A stretch of 29,694 nucleotides of DNA from a virus (lineage: Duplodnaviria; Caudoviricetes): IMG/VR virus record IMGVR_UViG_3300033067_000467, positions 1-29,694 of that record; one strand, written 5' to 3'. The first letter of the stretch is position 1, and each line of letters opens with the position of its first letter. Of the stretch, positions 1 to 29,694 are shown piece after piece. A program made the translations under genes and the position numbers. A model generated the notes under the pieces. That model worked only from the letters and a program-made list of their open reading frames with translations. It had not been told where the DNA came from and searched no databases.

Positions 1-49
1 AGCGTGAACTGCCGGGGGCGTGACCAACACCTAACGACCAGGAGTTGAT

Positions 50-289
50 ATGGCTGATTCTACGCCGCGCGACCTGCCCCCCTACGACGCCGAGGCGATC
101 GCGTTCGGCCGCAGGCGCAACCACCGGGCCGTCCTCAAGCGGATGGACGAGATCGTCGCCCTGATCCGCAGGTACGACCTGTGGGACATGGGCGATGGCC
201 TTGGCGGCCCGATCCTCGACGGGCTACGCGCCCGCAGCGAACGGCCCGCGCCTAGCCGGTTTGGCTTCGACGACTGCGCCGACCGATGA
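50..289 (+). CDS. hypothetical phage protein (79 aa)
   Basis: AGGAG RBS at 40-44 before the ATG; stop overlaps the next start (ATGA, 286-289). Confidence 0.7.
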   Translation: MADSTPRDLPPYDAEAIAFGRRRNHRAVLKRMDEIVALIRRYDLWDMGDGLGGPILDGLRARSERPAPSRFGFDDCADR

Positions 290-993
290 CATGGGTCAAG
301 CTCGACGACGGGTTCGCCGACCACCCGAAGGTCGCCGCCGCCGGGCATGTCGCCGCGTGGGTCTACGTCGCCGGGCTCTGCTACTGCTCCCGGCAACTCA
401 CGGACGGGTTCATCCCGACGAGCGTGCTGCGCCGCCTGACCGACGTGCCCAAGCCGGAACAGCACGCGGCCCGGCTCGTCGAGGTGGGCCTGTGGGAGAC
501 GTGTGACGGCGGATGGTGCGTCCACAACTACGCCGACCACCAACGCACACGCGAGCAGGTTGACGCCGACCGGGAGAAGTGGCGGGAGAAGAAGAAGAAG
601 CAGCGCAACACCACCGTTGTCCCCGGGGGACACTCGGGGGACACTCCGGGGAGTCCCCGCGATGTCCCTCCACCAGAGACAGAGACAGAGACAGAGACAG
701 AGGTTTGTAGTGGTTCTGTCTCAAGTCTTTCGCGCACGAACGGGCGAAACGGCACGGACCTCGACCCCTTTGAGAACGATCCTCGCTGGGTCCGACTTGC
801 TGACACGATGGAGAGCCGGGACGAGTCTCGTGCGAACACGTTCCGAACGATCCGACGGCTCATCAACAAGGAAGGCATCGCCGACCACCTCGTCGATGCA
901 GCGGCAGGGCAGACCATCGCCAAGGACGGCGCGGGCCTCGGCTACCTGACGATGATCGTCCGCGACTGGTACGACGCGAGGACCGGGGTGTGA
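286..993 (+). CDS. phage replication initiator protein (lambda O-like / actinophage RepA-like)
   Basis: N-terminus MTWVKLDDGFADHPKV...YCSRQLTDGFIP...LVEVGLW...VHNY..HQ, typical of phage replisome organisers; basic coiled segment, low-complexity linker (ETETETETE) and helical C-terminal domain. Confidence 0.8.
   Translation: MTWVKLDDGFADHPKVAAAGHVAAWVYVAGLCYCSRQLTDGFIPTSVLRRLTDVPKPEQHAARLVEVGLWETCDGGWCVHNYADHQRTREQVDADREKWREKKKKQRNTTVVPGGHSGDTPGSPRDVPPPETETETETEVCSGSVSSLSRTNGRNGTDLDPFENDPRWVRLADTMESRDESRANTFRTIRRLINKEGIADHLVDAAAGQTIAKDGAGLGYLTMIVRDWYDARTGV
618..702. repeat. iteron-like GGGGACA/TGTCCCC repeats plus (AGAGAC)x4.7; putative replication origin inside the initiator gene
   Basis: TGTCCCC 618-624, GGGGGACACT 625-634 and 636-645, GGGGAGTCCCC 648-658, TGTCCC 663-668, then AGAGAC tandem 675-702. 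Confidence 0.6.
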
Positions 994-1001
994 CCGTCCG
1001 C

Positions 1002-1030
1002 TTGACCGCGTCCCACCCGACGCGTAGCAT
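1002..1030 (+). promoter_or_regulatory. sigma70/SigA-type promoter with palindromic spacer
   Basis: TTGACC (1002-1007), 17 bp, TAGCAT (1025-1030); CGCGTC-N6-GACGCG at 1007-1024. Confidence 0.7.
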
Positions 1031-1036
1031 GATCCT

Positions 1037-1162
1037 GTCGCTGACCCTCCCAAGTGAGTCGACGCACGACCGGCCCCCGCCAAGCTCCGCCCGAGCCCCA
1101 CGGGGGCCGGTCCGCGTCCCGAGACGCGAAGAACCCCCGGTCATCGGGTCCGGGGGTCCTTC
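1037..1162 (+). ncRNA. candidate structured small RNA with anti-Shine-Dalgarno loop
   Basis: Follows the promoter, has no credible ORF, and forms four consecutive hairpins (1037-1063, 1068-1112, 1113-1128, 1128-1162); loop region ACCCTCCCAAG. Confidence 0.55.
1128..1162. terminator. intrinsic terminator, probably bidirectional, ending the late operon
   Basis: GAAGAACCCCCGG...CCGGGGGTCCTTC 13-bp stem (G-U pair on minus-strand RNA, A-C mismatch on plus) between convergent units. Confidence 0.7.
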
Positions 1163-1231
1163 ACGGTCATTCTCGATACGGAGTCCCATCCGCATCACAG
1201 CCCATCTGGAGCTGCGTGCGGCAGCGTACGC

Positions 1232-1954
1232 CTACGGCTTCTTCTCGTCAACGACGCGACGACAGCCACGCTCGGCCGTGTCGGCCTGCATCTCGCGGTA
1301 CTCGCCGCCACGCTTCAAGAACCACGCCTTCAGCTCGTCGAGCTTCTCGTCGATGATCTTCTCGCACTCTTCCGGGGTCACGTCGGGTTCCTCCACGATC
1401 GGGGTCAGGATCTCGTTCACACGCGCGACGAACGCCGGCCACGGAAAGTTCGGGCCTGGGTCGTAGTGACCGGACTGGCCGTACGCAGCACTCACGCAGA
1501 CGTGCCCTGTGAGCCCCCAGGCGCCCGCCTTGACCTCGTCGGCCCCAAGGTACCGGGCCGGGATCGCGTGCCTGTGACACCACGCTGCGACGGTCTGAGC
1601 GGCGTTCTCCAAAGCGGCGGTCGAGTAGGCGTCGGACCAGTCAGCGGTCGTCTGGCTCGCCCGACCGGCGATCTCGAGGTGGAGGCCGTCGTCGTTCGCG
1701 CCGGCTGCGCCGTTCGTCCGGTTGTCGTCGGGGGCGCAGCGGATGATCGAGTTGTCGTCGACGCAGATGTGCGCGGAGCCGACCGACCCGGACGCGTCGA
1801 GCGCGGCCTTCGACGAGAAGAACGCCGCGACCCCTTCCGCGGCAGATGACCCTTCGCCGGTCTCGGCCGTGTGGATCACGATCAGGCGGACGGTCCCGGC
1901 CCGCGGCTTCTGGTAGTAGGCCGCACGGTAGGGCAGGTCGTCGAGGTCGATCAT
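1232..1954 (-). CDS. endolysin, N-acetylmuramoyl-L-alanine amidase (Amidase_2-like), 240 aa
   Basis: Likely start MIDLDDLPY at the ATGA overlap with the upstream stop; zinc-amidase motifs IVIHT, SAH, HLEI, GH, HYDPGPNFPW. Confidence 0.9.
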   Translation of the reverse strand: MIDLDDLPYRAAYYQKPRAGTVRLIVIHTAETGEGSSAAEGVAAFFSSKAALDASGSVGSAHICVDDNSIIRCAPDDNRTNGAAGANDDGLHLEIAGRASQTTADWSDAYSTAALENAAQTVAAWCHRHAIPARYLGADEVKAGAWGLTGHVCVSAAYGQSGHYDPGPNFPWPAFVARVNEILTPIVEEPDVTPEECEKIIDEKLDELKAWFLKRGGEYREMQADTAERGCRRVVDEKKP

Positions 1955-3234
1955 GCGACTTCGATCCGGCCGGTGATCGACACGACGTCCGACGTCGCGA
2001 ATGTGATCGGCGACGTCGAGTGCAGGTTCGTCCACACGGTCGTCTCGCCGCCGAACACGACAGCGCCGCGGCCGTTCGCAGTGACGAGCGCCGCAAGGTT
2101 CGAGTCGGACGCGTCGTAGATCGCGAGGTTCAACGGGACCATCCGCGACGCGACCGACGTGACCCCGCCCGGCAGGGTGAACGTCCAGAAGTTCGCGCCC
2201 GAACCCCACACGGTCGTCCCGCCGCCACGCAAGTAGATCCCGAACTCGACGATCTTGCCGTACTGCCACCACCAGCCGGTCAACGTCCCGTTCCCGATGT
2301 CTGGCGCGGTCCCGCCTGCTGCCGCCCACGTCGGCGTGTACGCGGTCGATGCTTCTCCGGCGAAGTGCGCGGCGACCACACTCCCGGCGGCGATGCCGAG
2401 CGTCCCGACCTGCGCCCACTTCACCCCGACCGTCTCGCCCGAATCGGCAGCGAGGACCAGGCCGTCCGCGTCGATCGGCAGGACGTCGAGCGTCCCGGCG
2501 GCAGATGCCGACACGAGCCCGCCCTTGTCGATGTCGGTCACCCCGGCGATCTTCGCCGCGGTCACCGCCTCGGCGGCGAGGCCGTCCGTCGCGACCTGCC
2601 CCCACTTGTTGCCGGTCGCCTCGCCCGAATCGGCGATGAACACCTGGCCGTCCGTGCCGACCGCGAGCGCCGAGAACGTGTTCGTCCCCGTCGCCGTCGC
2701 CAGCCCGCCCTTCGCGATACCGGACAGGCCCGAGATCGACTGTGGGGTCAGCAACGCCCACTTCTGGCCGGTCGCCTGCGCCGAATCCGCGACCCGCACA
2801 TGGTTGTTCGTCCCGACGGCGAGACGAGCGAGTACCCCCGCCGACGTCGCAACAAGCGAATCGCCCTTCGTGGTCACGAGCCCGACCGTCTGCGACGCCG
2901 TGTAGTTCGCCTCGTCGATGTCGATCGACGTCAAGCACAGCTCGACCGTCGCCGACCCTGGCGTATGCGCGACGCCCGTACCTGGCGACGCCGAGTCGTA
3001 CCCGCGAGTCTCGATCGTGACCGTCGAACCCGTCCGCGACTCGCACAGGATCTTCTCTTCGTTCGCCGTGCCACGATCGACGACGACAGCGAACGACCCG
3101 GACGCGCCGGTCGGCCATCCGGTCGTCGCCGACAGGCCGAACGTGTCGCCCGGCGACGACGTCGCACCCGACAGGCCAGACGTGACGGTCGCCGCGACGG
3201 CAGACCCACTGTAGGAACGACGCTCGTACGACAT
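1951..3234 (-). CDS. tail fibre / minor tail protein
   Basis: Thr/Gly/Ala-rich; three KG...ADS...G.KW repeats; C-terminal YTPTW...IGNGTLTG...GK.V...FTLP fibre-tip-like domain. Confidence 0.75.
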   Translation of the reverse strand: MSYERRSYSGSAVAATVTSGLSGATSSPGDTFGLSATTGWPTGASGSFAVVVDRGTANEEKILCESRTGSTVTIETRGYDSASPGTGVAHTPGSATVELCLTSIDIDEANYTASQTVGLVTTKGDSLVATSAGVLARLAVGTNNHVRVADSAQATGQKWALLTPQSISGLSGIAKGGLATATGTNTFSALAVGTDGQVFIADSGEATGNKWGQVATDGLAAEAVTAAKIAGVTDIDKGGLVSASAAGTLDVLPIDADGLVLAADSGETVGVKWAQVGTLGIAAGSVVAAHFAGEASTAYTPTWAAAGGTAPDIGNGTLTGWWWQYGKIVEFGIYLRGGGTTVWGSGANFWTFTLPGGVTSVASRMVPLNLAIYDASDSNLAALVTANGRGAVVFGGETTVWTNLHSTSPITFATSDVVSITGRIEVA

Positions 3235-13538: not shown

Positions 13539-13562
13539 CAGGATTCCTTTCCCAAGCGGAAG

Positions 13563-23558: not shown

Positions 23559-25333
23559 GCACCGCCAACTGCGGCCATGCCGGCCTGCTGCCCGTTACGG
23601 AGCGTCATCAACATCGACGCGAGGTTCTGCTGCGACGGCTGCGCCGCACCGATCGCCGGTTGCGGCTTCGCAAGGCCCGGCATCTGCTCCGGTCCCGGCG
23701 GACCAGGCGGCGCCTGCTGTGCCGCGGCCGCGGCCTGCTGCTCCTTGAACTTCTGATCGACCTTCAAGTACGCCTCGGCCAGTTCGGCACGGTCCTGCTT
23801 CACGGTCCGCATCAACTCTGCGAGCGGCCCAACGAACGACGGGTCCTGCGCCGCACGAGTCTGCACCGCCGACAGCAACGCATCGTTCAACCGTTCGGTC
23901 ACGATCCGGTCACGTTCCGACTCGGCATCCTCGACGAGCGGGTCGATCGACATGAACGACTCCTTGCTCATCACGCCCGCGCCGACACGCTGCAACCCGC
24001 CGATCACCAGTTCCTGCTGGTCGACACCGGCCATCGAGTAGGCAACGACGTTGTCGTCGGTCTCCCACACTTCGTCCGGGTCGTAGGTGATCTGCCCGAG
24101 CGACGACGACACGAACGACACCGTCTTACGGCCCTTGAAAAACGCCTTGTCGATCGCGATCGCGATCTTGTTCTCTTCCTGTAGCGACGCCTCGAAAAGC
24201 TGCTGGACCTCTTGGAGCTCGAAGTCGATCGTCGCGGACAGGATCGCGTCGCCGCGCCGGCCGGTACGGACAGACGTGGTCGACTCGCCACCGAACTCGG
24301 CCGGGGTCGCGGTCTGGACCCGGATGTTGCGTTCCAACTGGTTCGTGAGACTCATCCCGAACGGCGACGGCGTCGGCGCGAACTGGGCGATCGAACCGTT
24401 CTGGACCTCGCCGATCACGCCGCGGAGCGGGTCGGCGATCTGGACGATCTTGCCCTGCCCGTCCTGGTTGTTGAACCACGTCTCAGGCCAGACCGACCGT
24501 TGCATCCCGATCAGTTCAAGCGCGAACAGTTGCGCCTGCGCCTGGTACATGCCGATCGCATGGAACAGGCGAGGGATCGACTTCGCGAGCGACACCCGCC
24601 CGGCGACGACCGCGAGGGGGCGGCCCGCCAAGTTCGGGAGGCGTTGCGCCTCGACGACCGCACCGCCTGCGTGGTAGCCGATCCCCGAATAGGCGTCGCC
24701 GTCGCCGCAGACGACGAACACGCACTCGTCAGCATCGACGTACTCGAGGACGGTGAACTGCGTGTCGGGCTTGCAGTCACGCTTGTTGACCATCCCCGAA
24801 CAGGCAGGCCACAGTTGGCGGATCTGCGCGAGGGGCATCTTGTACGCGTAGATCACATTGTCGGGTACGAGCGTCGACGCGTCGGTCGGCGGCGGGAGGC
24901 ACGTCGCAGGGTCGCGTACCTTCCAGGTCGGTCGGCCGGTAGCGAAGTCGGGGCGGATCATCACCGCGGACGCGTCATAGGCGACAGCATGGCGGGCACG
25001 TTCCCGCATCTTCAACTGCATCCGTTCCTCGGACCACCATCCGAGGTTGATCTGGCGGCGTTGCCGGGCCAGGTTCTCCGACCGTTTGATCGACGACCGC
25101 AGCTCGGGGTACTTCACGGTCGGCATCGTCGACGCGATCCGCATCGCCTTCTGATCGACGGTCTGCGCGATCAGGTTCGCGACGGCAGGCTTCTCCGACT
25201 GGTTGATCTCGGGGAGCGGGATCGCCATCTCCCCGCCGATCACCGAACGCAGTTCGAGCATCGCAGCATGGGCGGCGCCGAGGTTCTTGCGGCGATCCTC
25301 GTACATGTTGAAGATCTCTTCCGCCGACTTCAT
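23555..25333 (-). CDS. portal protein (592 aa)
   Basis: Follows the terminase; VANLI, VRDP, SVRTGRRG motifs; Gln/Pro-rich tail; GGAGGA RBS. Confidence 0.85.
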   Translation of the reverse strand: MKSAEEIFNMYEDRRKNLGAAHAAMLELRSVIGGEMAIPLPEINQSEKPAVANLIAQTVDQKAMRIASTMPTVKYPELRSSIKRSENLARQRRQINLGWWSEERMQLKMRERARHAVAYDASAVMIRPDFATGRPTWKVRDPATCLPPPTDASTLVPDNVIYAYKMPLAQIRQLWPACSGMVNKRDCKPDTQFTVLEYVDADECVFVVCGDGDAYSGIGYHAGGAVVEAQRLPNLAGRPLAVVAGRVSLAKSIPRLFHAIGMYQAQAQLFALELIGMQRSVWPETWFNNQDGQGKIVQIADPLRGVIGEVQNGSIAQFAPTPSPFGMSLTNQLERNIRVQTATPAEFGGESTTSVRTGRRGDAILSATIDFELQEVQQLFEASLQEENKIAIAIDKAFFKGRKTVSFVSSSLGQITYDPDEVWETDDNVVAYSMAGVDQQELVIGGLQRVGAGVMSKESFMSIDPLVEDAESERDRIVTERLNDALLSAVQTRAAQDPSFVGPLAELMRTVKQDRAELAEAYLKVDQKFKEQQAAAAAQQAPPGPPGPEQMPGLAKPQPAIGAAQPSQQNLASMLMTLRNGQQAGMAAVGGA

Positions 25334-25638
25334 GCTTCCTCCACGGGTTCGTACGTCGCGGCGAAGAGGTCAGGCTTGCACGGGTAGAACTCGCCTTGTA
25401 CGCCGCGGATGATCCAGTCGCCGATCTCGGCCCGCATCGCCCCCTCTAGCGTCTGGACGATGGCGTATGCGGCCTCATTGTCGGCGTCCTGTCGACATGC
25501 GAGTCGTCCGCCGTTACCGCAGACCCACGCCCATAGATCGCCGCCCTTGTTCTCGTTCCACGGAGCGGGCGGCATTGCTTCGGTGTACGCACCGAAACGG
25601 CGTGCTTCGATAACGACGGGCTTCTTACGGAACTTCAC
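25330..25638 (-). CDS. conserved phage protein of the RKKPVVIEA...GEFYPCKPD family
   Basis: KFRKKPVVIEA, TLEG, GDWIIRGVQGEFYPCKPDLFAATYE motifs; GTG start with GGAGGA RBS. Confidence 0.85.
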   Translation of the reverse strand: MKFRKKPVVIEARRFGAYTEAMPPAPWNENKGGDLWAWVCGNGGRLACRQDADNEAAYAIVQTLEGAMRAEIGDWIIRGVQGEFYPCKPDLFAATYEPVEEA

Positions 25639-25769
25639 GCTTCCTCCACGTCACTGTTCGCGTACGCCTCGACATAGAGCAGTTCGGGGTCCTCGCCTGC
25701 GTGGGCACGGGTGAGCAGCGCGAGAAGCTGCGGGCCGTGGATCACCCACCAAGAGTCGATCCCGTTCAC
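25635..25769 (-). CDS. 44-aa hypothetical protein (not in ORF track)
   Basis: GTG-start MNGIDSWWVIHGPQLLALLTRAHAGEDPELLYVEAYANSDVEEA fills the gap exactly, with GTGA overlaps at both ends. Confidence 0.7.
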   Translation of the reverse strand: MNGIDSWWVIHGPQLLALLTRAHAGEDPELLYVEAYANSDVEEA

Positions 25770-26377
25770 GCGATCCTCCGATCACGGCCGATCCACGACG
25801 GCCGGGACGGCATCTGCAGCGGCGCACGGTTCGTGCGAAGGTCCTGCACCTGCTGATACCACCACTTCCACACGAACCAGAGCGCCATCACCAAGTCTTG
25901 CTTCGGTGCTTTCATCATCTTGCCGGTGATCGGCGACAGGGCCGGTGGGCGCCACGCCCGCAACTGGTTCAACAGGGGCGTCATCCGCTCGCGGGACAGG
26001 TCATCACCCCATGGGATCGACACCTCACGAGCAATGAACGAACGGTTCATCTGCGCCGTCCCGAACACCTCATCGGCCTTGTTCATACGGGTCGTATGGG
26101 GCCGGACCTCGAAGCCTACCTCTGCGGCGATCGCATGGAGGCGATCGTCGTTCCCGAGGCCTTTCTGCTGGGCGTCGATCTCGATGATGACGACAGACGG
26201 CCGGTACTTGCGGGCGTACTTGTCGATCAGGCTCAACAGCTCTTCGGTCTTGTTCAGCCCGTATTGCACTTCGGCGTCGACGACGTAGAGCTTCTCGGCC
26301 GTGACCGTACAGGCGATGATCGCCGTCCCGCCGCCGAGGGCCGGGTCGAACCCGAGGACAGTCTGCCCGTCGATCAT
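25766..26377 (-). CDS. terL: terminase large subunit, nuclease (RNase H-like) domain as a separate ORF
   Basis: VLGFDPA, VIIEIDAQQK, HTT..NK, QDLVMALWF acidic motifs. Confidence 0.85.
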   Translation of the reverse strand: MIDGQTVLGFDPALGGGTAIIACTVTAEKLYVVDAEVQYGLNKTEELLSLIDKYARKYRPSVVIIEIDAQQKGLGNDDRLHAIAAEVGFEVRPHTTRMNKADEVFGTAQMNRSFIAREVSIPWGDDLSRERMTPLLNQLRAWRPPALSPITGKMMKAPKQDLVMALWFVWKWWYQQVQDLRTNRAPLQMPSRPSWIGRDRRIA

Positions 26378-27555
26378 GCGGCGGTCACGAGCCCGAACGT
26401 GCGGGTCGTATCTAGGCAGTTCTCGACCGCGTCACCGAACGTCGACGACAGCGACGTCTTCGGTTCCTGTTCGTACTGTGCCGCCCACGCGTCCGGGCCG
26501 ACCGTCCGCTTCTGACGGTCCATCTTCACGATCGCGAGGTCCATCAGCTCTTCGGGTGTCAGCTTCGACACGTCGATGTTGTGATCTTCCATCAGCCATG
26601 CGGCCGGGACCCGCGGCACGAACCTATTGCGCCGGTCGTCCCAACAGGTCGCCGGCCACGACACGAGATGGTCGACGACACCCTCGTCGAGCAGCCGTTC
26701 GTAGATGTCGCCCTGGCCGATGCGCGTCCCGCAGATGAAGATCCGCAACGGCTTCGACGGCGTCCCACGGTTGAAGTACGTCTGGCGGAGGATCTTCAGA
26801 TATCGGGCGGTCTGCGACAGCGACACGGTCGACTGGACGTCATCGACGATCAGGGTGTCGGCACGCGACCCGTACGCTCGGGACAAGATCGCATAAGCGG
26901 CGATCGTCGGGTCCTTCGCGTCGTTGTTCGAGCCCATCACGGTCAGGCGCCCGCCACCCCACGGCTTCTTGTGGTTACGTTCCTGGCCCGGCTCGTAGAA
27001 CGGCCCGTACCGGGCGACCAACGCCGAGAAGTCCGCGGTCTCGTTCCCGACGAGCACTTCCGTCTCGTTACGGAACCGCTTGGAGATCTGCGTCACGAAG
27101 TCATCGACGAGCGACGACGCCTCCGAGACGTACATGATCCGATGGTCCGGGTCCTCAGCGACCGTGCGGGTCACCCAGTCGAGGATCACCGACGACTTCC
27201 CCGACCCCGGCCACACGTTGAACATCGTGATCTCGCCACGTTCCGTCGCGTCGAGCGCCTCAGCGAGCGCCAACTGGTGCGCGAGATGCCGACGGTGGCA
27301 GTACCGGGCCGACCAGTCCGCCATCGACAGGTTGTCATCCGCCCGAGGGCGGCGCCGATGCCTGTGCAGCGACTCGGTGACCTGACCGGCCCACACCGGG
27401 AACTTCCGCCGGTGGTACTGGTACGACTTGTCGGAGAACCCGACGACAGCGAGCGCATCCTTGATGGTCATCCCATCCGACACCAGCTCGAGGACCCGGT
27501 CGCGTTTCAGTTGCGCGGCCTTGTACCTCTTCACCGTCGGCGACGCCTCATCCAC
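26374..27555 (-). CDS. terL: terminase large subunit ATPase domain with N-terminal HTH
   Basis: Walker A PGSGKS, Walker B LIVDD, coupling motif GTR, YEQEP; N-terminal VLELVSDGMTIKDALAVVG HTH; likely leaderless GTG start at 27555. Confidence 0.85.
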   Translation of the reverse strand: MDEASPTVKRYKAAQLKRDRVLELVSDGMTIKDALAVVGFSDKSYQYHRRKFPVWAGQVTESLHRHRRRPRADDNLSMADWSARYCHRRHLAHQLALAEALDATERGEITMFNVWPGSGKSSVILDWVTRTVAEDPDHRIMYVSEASSLVDDFVTQISKRFRNETEVLVGNETADFSALVARYGPFYEPGQERNHKKPWGGGRLTVMGSNNDAKDPTIAAYAILSRAYGSRADTLIVDDVQSTVSLSQTARYLKILRQTYFNRGTPSKPLRIFICGTRIGQGDIYERLLDEGVVDHLVSWPATCWDDRRNRFVPRVPAAWLMEDHNIDVSKLTPEELMDLAIVKMDRQKRTVGPDAWAAQYEQEPKTSLSSTFGDAVENCLDTTRTFGLVTAA

Positions 27556-27559
27556 GCGC

Positions 27560-27582
27560 GGATTATTGCACACCCTGTGCAA
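27560..27582 (-). promoter_or_regulatory. putative late, leaderless promoter with TTGCAC-N5-GTGCAA palindrome
   Basis: Minus strand TTGCACAGGGTGTGCAATAATCC; AATAAT ends 6 nt before the GTG. Confidence 0.55.
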
Positions 27583-27586
27583 GAAC

Positions 27587-27615
27587 GTGACACATGGCCC
27601 CGACCCTGCCACAAT
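27587..27615 (+). promoter_or_regulatory. promoter for the Tad1-like operon
   Basis: GTGACA, 17 bp, CACAAT with a TGn extension; AAGGAG RBS downstream. Confidence 0.5.
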
Positions 27616-27647
27616 CAGCCGAGAACACCGACAACAAGGAGCACGCA

Positions 27648-27977
27648 ATGCACCAGCCCTACGTCAACGCCTTCCGACTCGACGAGAACGGCAAGCCAGC
27701 CGGTGGCTCGTCGCACGCGACCGGCATCCAGATCGAGTGGCAGAACGGGCCGCTCGGCGCACCCGACGACCCCGAACGCAAGGAGCCGAACGGCGCGTTC
27801 GTCCAGACGATCATCGCCATCGCACGCGACCGCATCCAGTGGTACAACGACAACGGGTTCGCGTGCCGCGAGAACTCCTGTGCGATCACCAAGCTCGACG
27901 AGGCGCAGCACTGGCTCAACGACCGCACGAATCGGCGCACCGCGCAGGGCGTCGAAGGCACCCACCAGGGGAACTGA
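27648..27977 (+). CDS. tad1: Tad1-like anti-Thoeris/anti-CBASS nucleotide sponge (109 aa)
   Basis: WQNGP...NG...IARDRIQWY...FACRENSCAITKLDEAQHWLNDRT.RR...GVEGT matches the Tad1 pattern as I recall it (FQxG...DRL..FQ...F..RENA.A.T..EEAL.W...R...R..RGV.GT). Confidence 0.8.
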   Translation: MHQPYVNAFRLDENGKPAGGSSHATGIQIEWQNGPLGAPDDPERKEPNGAFVQTIIAIARDRIQWYNDNGFACRENSCAITKLDEAQHWLNDRTNRRTAQGVEGTHQGN

Positions 27978-28207: not shown

Positions 28208-28311
28208 AACCCGCCAAGATCGCCGCCGGCCTCGCAGCCGGCCTCGCAGCCGGAACCATCGTCTACGCAGCCCTCTGCCACGCCCTCGCCCGAGCCTGGG
28301 GCCAATGGTAA
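28204..28311 (+). CDS. 35-aa membrane peptide
   Basis: MKPAKIAAGLAAGLAAGTIVYAALCHALARAWGQW; overlaps both neighbours. Confidence 0.5.
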   Translation: MKPAKIAAGLAAGLAAGTIVYAALCHALARAWGQW

Positions 28312-28508
28312 CCCGACACCGCCCCAACCAAACCCGAGCACGCCACGAACCACCCCGCGGCTACACCGCCGTCACCTGCTGGTGCGAACAGAACATCGTC
28401 CACGTCCCCGAACGATGGATCATCAACCTCCGCACCGACACCTGCGGCCAACCCAACTGCCACCCACCCGCCGGAACCCCCGACCCCACCTACCCCTGGC
28501 CGTACTAA
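28305..28508 (+). CDS. small Cys-rich protein (67 aa)
   Basis: CWC...CGQPNC possible metal site; last ORF before the non-coding region. Confidence 0.5.
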   Translation: MVTRHRPNQTRARHEPPRGYTAVTCWCEQNIVHVPERWIINLRTDTCGQPNCHPPAGTPDPTYPWPY

Positions 28509-28778
28509 AACCCCAGGTCAGAAGGGGGTTGACAGCCATGATTAGAATCTAGGAAGAGCGGCGCGCACGCGCGGCAAGGGGACAGAGCCACCAGGCCCCC
28601 CACACCAGCCGCCCCAAGCAGCCGAAACCCGGCGTACCCATGTCTTCGCTTCGTTATCGGTAGCGCGCTCGAGCACACCCAACACACAGCGAGGGTCCAA
28701 AATCGACCGACCCACAGTACGAGTCACACCCCTTACAGGGGTGCCGGCCGGGTCGGGCACTGTGCCCGGTCAAACGTG

Positions 28779-28845
28779 TGTGTAGTCACGGGCTGACTAC
28801 TCATGTTCAGGTCGGTTGGGTGAGTAGTCCGAGGTTGACTACTCA
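28779..28845. repeat. two tandem palindromes TG(A/T)GTAGTC-N7-GACTACTCA, period 42 bp
   Basis: 28779-28803 and 28821-28845, each followed by TG.TC(A)GGTCG. Confidence 0.85.
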
Positions 28846-28911
28846 TGCTCGGTCGATACCTGGGGGGGTATGTGTTTCCACCGCTCTAAGGGCTCGCAAC
28901 CTCACACAATG

Positions 28912-28961
28912 TGACGTGATCTGACGTGATCTGAGACAACCTGACGTGAACTGACAGGAGT
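28912..28961. repeat. five phased 10-bp repeats, consensus TGACGTGA(T/A)C
   Basis: TGACGTGATC, TGACGTGATC, TGAGACAACC, TGACGTGAAC, TGACAGGAGT. Confidence 0.8.
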
Positions 28962-29050
28962 TACGTTCTCCCCCGGGTGCTGTGGCCTGGTGTTTCGTGG
29001 GTCTGTGTTGTGCTGTCGGGTGAGTGTGACGGATGTCACGTTGTGGGGGC

Positions 29051-29079
29051 TTGACAGCTTGGGGTGGGTGGCGCATGAT
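29051..29079 (+). promoter_or_regulatory. sigma70/SigA-type early promoter
   Basis: TTGACA, 17 bp, CATGAT; followed by leader hairpin GCACCGG-N8-CCGGTGC (29087-29108) and GGGAGG RBS. Confidence 0.7.
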
Positions 29080-29128
29080 GCTCGTGGCACCGGACGTCTG
29101 ACCGGTGCGTGACCTTGGGAGGGTTGAT

Positions 29129-29694
29129 ATGAGTGACCGTGCAAGCTACAGAGAACGACGCGAGGCGCGCGCCGAACGGCTCCGGACGTGGGCGGATTCG
29201 CGCGAGCAGAAGGCCGAGGCGGCTTTGGCGAAGGCGCACGGCATGGCCGATGCGATCCCGTTCGGGCAGCCGATCGCCACAGATCACTACTCGGCGGGTC
29301 GTGACGTCCGCTACCGGGAACGGATGCGGTCGACGATGGCGCGCGGCTTCGAGCATGTCAAGAAGGCCGAAGAGATGCGCCGTCGTGCCGAAGAGATCGA
29401 ACGTCAGGCGGCACGGTCGATCTACTCGGACGACGGCGACGCTGCCGACAAGCTGCGGGCGCGTATCGCCGAGCTCGAAGCGGCACGCGCCCGCATCAAC
29501 GCGTTCAACGCGTCATGTCGGAAGGGCACGCCGGACGCGTCGCTGTTGGACGAACGGCAGCGACGTGACCTGATGTCGCTGGTGAAGCACGCTTCCTACC
29601 AGCTGCGCAAGGGCGGCCAATTCCCCGCGTACGCGACGAGCAACCTTGCCGGCCGGATCAAGAAGGATCGGGACCGGCTCGCGGCGATGGAAGC
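29129..29694 (+). CDS. DUF3560-domain protein, 3' truncated by window end (not in ORF track)
   Basis: Manual translation MSDRASYRERREARAERLRTWADSREQKA...ADAIPFGQPIATDHYSAGRD...IYSDDGDAADKLRARIAELE...YATSNLAGRIKK; IPFGQPI..HYS is the DUF3560 signature. Confidence 0.8.
   Translation, partial: MSDRASYRERREARAERLRTWADSREQKAEAALAKAHGMADAIPFGQPIATDHYSAGRDVRYRERMRSTMARGFEHVKKAEEMRRRAEEIERQAARSIYSDDGDAADKLRARIAELEAARARINAFNASCRKGTPDASLLDERQRRDLMSLVKHASYQLRKGGQFPAYATSNLAGRIKKDRDRLAAME

Follow-up and report, generated by a model that had tools for sequence, protein, structure and literature searches.

What does the intergenic stretch between the replication-initiation-like gene (rep) and the endolysin gene of this phage encode, where a run of consecutive hairpins follows a promoter of its own and one loop carries the complement of a Shine-Dalgarno (SD) sequence found near the other end of the record? 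The first-pass annotation had proposed a trans-acting phage small RNA that silences a distant early gene. The window, by which we mean the whole 29,694-nt record analyzed here, is a tailed-phage genome of 66.6% GC; its late genes run leftward from terminase to endolysin, and a short early region runs rightward (Table 1). When the ends of the record were joined, positions 29694 and 1 read in frame, placing the stop codon of the DUF3560 gene at window positions 5 to 7, and 20 aligned DUF3560 homologs stop 1 to 9 residues past the window's last codon. The in-frame ends and the homolog end positions together make it likely that the record is circular or was circularly assembled. Because the record closes in frame, the predicted target, DUF3560, would stand at the head of the same early region that has the candidate RNA at its tail, ∼1.6 kb away if the record is circular, so the target is not distant after all. 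No integrase or repressor was found among 27 scanned ORFs, which are not the complete ORF set. The nearest cultured capsids are those of Streptomyces phages (33 to 37% identity), a likeness from which the host is probably an actinobacterium.

Table 1. Features of the candidate RNA, its predicted target, and their surroundings (window coordinates)
Feature	Position	Strand	Basis and remarks
Early genes in order, rightward	DUF3560 (from 29129), 79-aa ORF (50-289), rep (286-993)	+	
79-aa ORF between DUF3560 and rep	50-289	+	No family match; weak predicted binding, -5.6
Replication-initiation-like gene (rep)	286-993	+	PHROG 2447, E = 5.5e-34; last early gene before candidate RNA
Sigma-70-type promoter TTGACC-17-TAGCAT	1002-1030 (TTGACC, 1002-1007; TAGCAT, 1025-1030)	+	Promoter scan
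6-bp inverted repeat in promoter spacer, CGCGTC-CCACCC-GACGCG	1007-1024		Same stem as H3
Predicted small RNA, ∼126 nt, four consecutive hairpins	1037-1162	+	Fold; z = -5.0; no Rfam match
H1, weak 5' hairpin, -7.1 kcal/mol	1037-1063	+	Open loop CCUCCCAA at 1046-1053
11-nt seed	1044-1054	+	Exact complement of 29114-29124; contains CCUCCCAA
H2, 12-bp perfect stem, C/A-rich internal and apical loops	1068-1112		More stable on minus strand
H3, 6-bp hairpin	1113-1128		Fold
H4, likely two-way intrinsic terminator, weak U tails	1129-1162		Sequence; between convergent rep and endolysin; no call in terminator scan
Endolysin gene (Amidase_2)	1232-1954	-	Last late gene; convergent on hairpin element
7-nt partial match CTTGGGA before Ig-domain gene	13550-13556	-	Probably not a target
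Early promoter TTGACA-17-CATGAT, before target leader	29051-29079	+	Promoter scan
Early mRNA 5' leader hairpin, -12.3 kcal/mol	29087-29108	+	Fold
Predicted pairing site: SD region 29114-29124 and flanks on both sides of AUG 29129	29109-29137	+	Duplex prediction
DUF3560 gene, predicted target	29129-29694; stop at 5-7 if circular	+	E = 2.7e-29; charged protein, ∼190 aa

Several features elsewhere in the window were observed in the course of this work. Terminase large-subunit homology is split over two adjacent ORFs (25766 to 27648, minus strand; phrog_38 positions 291 to 522 and 548 to 715). Inside or beside this region lies a rightward gene (27587 to 27977, plus strand; ATG at 27648 with a good ribosome-binding site [RBS]) that has its own promoter-like site, GTGACA-17-CACAAT with an extended -10, and whose product resembles the anti-Thoeris sponge Tad1 (PDB matches at E = 1e-9; PF24729 at E = 1.4e-4, below the cutoff). 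A 102-aa gene (25330 to 25638, minus strand; phrog_419, E = 5e-30; faint PGDYG match) is reminiscent of Tad2-type sponges, but a PDB search returned no Tad2-type match for it. Two 31-nt repeats at 28778 to 28850, each an inverted repeat around TGAGTAGTC/GACTACTCA and partly kept in the related phage X2, are operator-like or origin-like; short direct repeats of the TGACGTGA type at 28901 to 28955 are possible iterons; and at 28524 to 28542, GGGGGTTGACAGC-CATGAT resembles the early promoter (29046 to 29079) minus most of its spacer.

The near-consensus promoter reported directly after rep was confirmed by our scan. It is the sole promoter-like site in positions 1 to 3000, where 0.1 was expected, and one of three in the entire record on both strands (1002, 27587, and 29051); two of these three precede the candidate RNA and its target. 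From the usual promoter spacing, transcription presumably starts near 1036 to 1037, at the base of H1. The CGCGTC/GACGCG stem of the promoter spacer recurs in H3, and this palindrome could be a protein-binding site controlling the promoter.

Downstream of the promoter, the absence of a credible ORF held up, since the only plus-strand start within the stretch is a GTG at 1054 with no upstream SD sequence, and the four back-to-back hairpins were likewise recovered. Rfam covariance models run over the entire window (4227 families, E ≤ 1) gave no matches, including to RsaE, RNAIII, and C4. The description of the H1 loop as presenting the full 11-mer stood in part. The loop is open, with CCUCCCAA unpaired at p ≥ 0.95 in folds starting at 1034 to 1037 and at 0.74 to 0.98 in the fold of 994 to 1235, but the open part is 8 nt rather than all 11, and H1 itself is marginal: it is lost in the fold of 1035 to 1170, where the loop is still single-stranded. 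That the stretch ends in a terminator could not be upheld as described. The terminator scan made no plus-strand call at H4, and the tail of this hairpin, which would work in both directions, is weak on either strand.

We then compared the candidate RNA with the start regions of the record. The 11-mer CTTGGGAGGGT occurs exactly twice when up to 1 mismatch is allowed, in reverse at 1044 to 1054 and forward at 29114 to 29124 (shuffle mean, 0.26), which leaves a single complement, at the SD sequence of a gene that is indeed DUF3560; the next-best complement matches before starts are 8 and 7 nt. Across 28 start regions that we picked ourselves, the DUF3560 leader ranked first both with the full RNA and unfolding costs included (-16.4 versus -10.0 kcal/mol for the next) and with the 5' domain alone (-15.5 versus -9.2 kcal/mol). 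The predicted duplex engages 1037 to 1054 on both sides of the AUG, plus 1058 to 1060. The leader was also the best non-self window of 2964 windows of 70 nt (-20.2; next, -16.0; mean, -3.3). Extending the leader to take in its own 5' hairpin brought the net energy to -15.0, which does not improve on the strongest background windows (-16.0, -15.6, and -15.2). Depending on how the window over the leader is placed, the energy lies anywhere between -15.0 and -21.7, and first place across the genome therefore hinges on that choice. When sites were ordered by hybrid energy only, eight others equaled or outscored the target window. The partial match before the RBS of the Ig-domain gene is present in the sequence, but it makes a weak target (-8.5 versus -16.4 kcal/mol for DUF3560 with the full RNA). 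We rejected the Ig gene as a second target on energy, and the suggestion of several targets is weak.

Part of any such match is expected of a C-rich sequence facing an SD sequence, and GGAGG occurs in 8 of the 28 start zones. When CCUCC was kept constant between random flanks, 1643 of 200,000 trials (∼0.8%) produced a perfect match of at least 11 nt; this figure was obtained after the fact and needs scaling up by the small number of loops eligible for selection. Shuffling everything except CCUCC reached the net energy in 15 of 600 trials and the hybrid energy in 2 of 600. Fixing the whole 11-mer gave a different outcome for the flanks, whose pairing was equaled in 288 (net), 69 (hybrid), and 65 (structure kept) of 600 trials. 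The two G-U pairs said to extend the duplex toward the AUG are present, but pairing beyond the 11-mer is thus nonsignificant, and for the same reason we set aside the extra pairing blocks (1058 to 1067 with 29105 to 29113, and 1037 to 1042 with 29132 to 29137) as strong evidence. A wider survey covered 168 promoter-like sites in 104 GC-rich loci (1.44 Mb, partly redundant, window included): 7 sites had CCUCC in the first 40 nt, 2 of them looped, and only the 1002 site joined a looped CCUCC to an 11-nt match before a start codon. By these sequence comparisons, the match to the SD sequence of the first early gene is better than chance, in a case that rests on one genome.

Because the promoter lies ∼6 nt before the base of H1, the target ranks first of 28 start regions, and the match beats the generic anti-SD null, a trans-acting plus-strand RNA directed at the DUF3560 RBS is the reading that fits best, much as the first-pass annotation had it. 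Against this reading, X2 replaces the promoter and the outer 5' arm of H1, and H2 and H4 suit the minus strand better. Weighing both sides, we give an even chance that 1037 to 1162 is a C-rich-loop small RNA, made from its own host-type promoter, that pairs with the DUF3560 RBS and dampens the gene after an initial burst. Under this model, host RNA polymerase would fire two promoters upon DNA entry, the early one at 29051 and that at 1002, and DUF3560 would be translated at once, before the RNA is present. As the stable RNA accumulates, its loop would dock on the SD sequence and the weak H1 would open, allowing up to 18 contiguous RNA bases to pair on both sides of the AUG. Initiation would then be blocked, and a probable establishment protein would be made only briefly; in a cell already holding the phage, still less DUF3560 would be made. 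H4 would end both the small RNA and the opposing late transcript.

The hairpins could instead mark where the convergent early and late transcripts both end, as stabilizing stems plus a terminator that works in two directions, with the anti-SD match arising by chance or as a leftover. We regard this explanation as possible, if somewhat unlikely. The element does sit between the convergent rep and endolysin genes, and it folds more stably on the minus strand (-43.0 versus -33.6 for H2; -21.5 versus -18.8 for H4; whole-stretch z, -6.0 versus -5.0) because positions that are A-C mismatches in the plus-strand H2 and H4 pair as G-U when the minus strand folds. This predicted asymmetry fits the 3' end of a late transcript but also follows from the C/A-rich loops. 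The nonsignificant flank pairing points the same way, as does X2, in which the element travels with the lysis side: the X2 contig matches the window over 709 to 986 and over 1041 to 2598 (45 differences and 1 gap in the latter), 987 to 1040 is replaced by 249 other letters, and neither this promoter nor H1's outer 5' arm is retained at 80%, while the loop region lies inside the aligned part. A terminator would nevertheless leave unexplained both the rare promoter just before H1 and an 11-nt exact SD match behind another rare promoter, a coincidence at the ∼0.8% level of the anti-SD null. In addition, a 228-nt contig of X6 (depth, 2.3) matches 1023 to 1119 (1 difference, 3 gaps) yet diverges beyond, before H4. 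X2 and X6 are the only related assemblies covering the element. The part that they share with the window, 1041 to 1119, comprises the loop, H2, and half of H3 between differing flanks; its retention lends weak support to a kept element and is equally a sign of module boundaries.

Other relatives bear less directly on the choice. Seven of the eight listed runs contain part of the stretch; X2, X5, X6, and X7 were compared over 1 to 2600, and X1, X2, X4, and X6 over 28300 to 29694. X5 and X7 do not cover the element. X2, X4, and X6 have no coverage of 29114 to 29124, and short matches are invisible to this comparison, so it indicates neither loss nor conservation of the target site. The X2 contig departs from the window sequence after 28881, and arithmetic on two contigs of like depth suggests that X2 has ∼10 kb of early region where the window, from 28881 round to its first position, has 0.8 kb; the record may come from a genome that has shrunk considerably or from an assembly that collapsed. 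X1, which may be the source sample, was not counted as support. It showed a second allele at 29010 to 29110, in which a shared early promoter is followed by a different leader hairpin, CCGGAC-GGGT-GTCCGG, and then by the same TGCGTG (30 of 133 loose letters visible). Searches of viral contigs with DUF3560, the endolysin, a tail protein, and the rep C-terminal domain found no relatives with DNA context, and the 18-nt H1 core had 0 exact copies there. The loci found with rep (47), the capsid (80), and DUF3560 (80) were distant. By blastn, element and leader had no homolog in the first 210 loci. Metagenome contigs yielded 3 distant endolysins, with the best gene (L048) followed by tRNA-like sequence and host-like genes, and genome contigs yielded 12 distant rep loci. 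No GenBank phage matched the element, the leader, the rep C terminus, or DUF3560 in any meaningful way.

Pairing in cis is an improbable alternative. Here, an early mRNA would read through rep to 1162, and its 3' end would fold back on its own 5' RBS as a long-range switch. Loop and target do share a strand and stand at opposite ends of a single early region, some 1.6 kb apart if the record is circular, and no terminator was called between rep and H1. Against such a switch, a dedicated promoter sits in front of H1, and ribosomes would presumably be on DUF3560 well before transcription reaches the 3' end; the record may also be short of early genes that are present in a relative. Quite improbable, too, is a general anti-SD RNA acting on many G-rich RBSs of host or phage, with DUF3560 as merely the best local match. 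All predicted plus-strand loops are C-rich, RsaE-type UCCC-loop RNAs have many targets (PMC2790875), and the loop region is retained in X2, where the early region differs from that of the window after 28881. In the 5'-domain scan, however, five other start regions compared there that contain GGAGG stayed between -1.0 and -3.1 kcal/mol, and the Ig start came to -5.7. It is scarcely credible that the 11-mer is the relic SD sequence of a leftward gene behind the endolysin and no antisense seed: on the minus strand it is an SD-type word, and X2 has its 249 other letters directly after it in the leftward direction, but the next minus-strand start in the window is spaced 15 nt from GGAGG, with a frame that runs antisense to rep, and H4 would stop late transcription before the 11-mer.

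Returning to the trans-acting RNA, we asked what its target might do. Structural look-alikes of DUF3560 include a 65-member cluster, 85% of which also carry ArdcN as a fusion, and relatives of DUF3560 are found on 84 plasmids, 52 of them conjugative. In the one examined, an IncW plasmid, the relative has a gene for a zincin-like metallopeptidase on one side and, on the other, ssb and a gene for a TrfB-related regulator; we infer that the metallopeptidase and TrfB-related genes are ardC and ardK (for ArdC, see PMC7213743). In plasmid R388, negative feedback acts on ardC and ssb, whose expression climbs just after transfer (PMC3937220). An entry-stage or establishment role for DUF3560 is therefore plausible, by guilt by association only. 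We found no solved structure of a DUF3560 relative and no described function in the mostly open-access literature searched; the available part of PMC6965323 merely names DUF3560, as a plasmid gene hit by CRISPR spacers.

The candidate RNA is uncatalogued, and its type of mechanism, a C-rich loop on an SD sequence, is already known. In the same mostly open-access literature, we found no description of this RNA and no report of phage anti-SD noncoding RNAs acting on early genes. A defined target is on record for few phage small RNAs, and the examples in the available part of PMC12197685 come from proteobacterial phages. If the preferred reading is true, the locus offers a compact, directly testable RNA-target pair in a phage of a probably actinobacterial host, and a case in which RNA, instead of the protein repressors employed by plasmid R388, times the expression of an establishment-type gene. 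A role open to testing would then also suggest itself for the unexplained hairpin of the cultured cluster K mycobacteriophages that carries a reverse copy of their Start-Associated Sequence (SAS). A more far-reaching proposal strikes us as doubtful: in a miniature phage that has just three recognizable early genes and in which neither repressor nor integrase was detected, an RNA feedback loop would run the early program, with the anti-SD RNA at the tail shutting off translation of the head gene and throttling rep through polarity. This arrangement would confine expression to entry, control copy number, and provide superinfection immunity with no need of a protein repressor, and the RNA would belong, together with the cluster K reverse SAS, to a class of anti-SD hairpin RNAs that recurs among phages and has yet to be described.

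How does the candidate compare with known systems? Type I toxin-antitoxin RNAs target short hydrophobic toxin peptides, whereas DUF3560 is a charged protein of ∼190 aa. The phage RNAs sar, OOP, and aQ lie antisense to their targets at the same locus, and antisense RNAs of the sar and OOP kind have long perfect complementarity; the candidate, unlike them, is at a separate locus, on the same strand as its target, with an 11-nt perfect match. C4 is the first gene of the c4-icd-ant operon, which C4 RNA represses. Unlike C4, the candidate lies at the tail of the early region with its own promoter, has DUF3560 rather than icd or ant as its predicted target, and lacks an Rfam C4 match; no icd/ant family match was found among the 27 scanned ORFs. 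Likenesses to these phage RNAs are also apparent. sar (P22), OOP and aQ (lambda), and 24B_1 (Phi24B), the last a processed 20-mer, are small phage RNAs that lower phage gene expression by base pairing (PMC12197685), and the candidate is a small phage RNA predicted to do the same. As with C4 of P1 and P7, it would be a phage RNA on the same strand as its target, with short complementarity, acting on an early operon of its own genome (PMC8198154).

The cluster K mycobacteriophages provide a parallel in arrangement. Each cluster K1 genome has one reverse SAS (PMC3203893), and in Adephagia (L223, 30650 to 30715) the lone reverse copy sits between genes 92 and 93, where a long hairpin is predicted that has it in a 10-nt apical loop (CCUCCUAUCC). 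PMC11373665 places the apparent start of late transcription in this interval and, in its available part, calls the role of the SAS unknown. The candidate is likewise a single, intergenic, reverse copy of an RBS motif. It differs in having one full target and a sigma-70-type promoter, whereas the SAS precedes many genes: we counted 16 forward SAS sites in the 31.6 kb of Adephagia scanned versus one forward copy of the 11-mer here (up to 1 mismatch). By blastn, the element had no meaningful match among GenBank phages.

The closest resemblance in mechanism is to the C-rich-loop RNAs RsaE and RNAIII of Staphylococcus aureus and to the CyaR loop of Salmonella, with which the candidate shares an unpaired UCCC loop, a 5' hairpin, a 3' terminator-like stem, and predicted pairing to an SD sequence (PMC2790875). 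It departs from these RNAs in being phage encoded and GC rich, with one dominant predicted target in its own genome and no Rfam match. Two features of the class have their counterparts at this locus, where UCCC falls in the unpaired CCUCCCAA and the predicted duplex covers the SD sequence of the DUF3560 leader.
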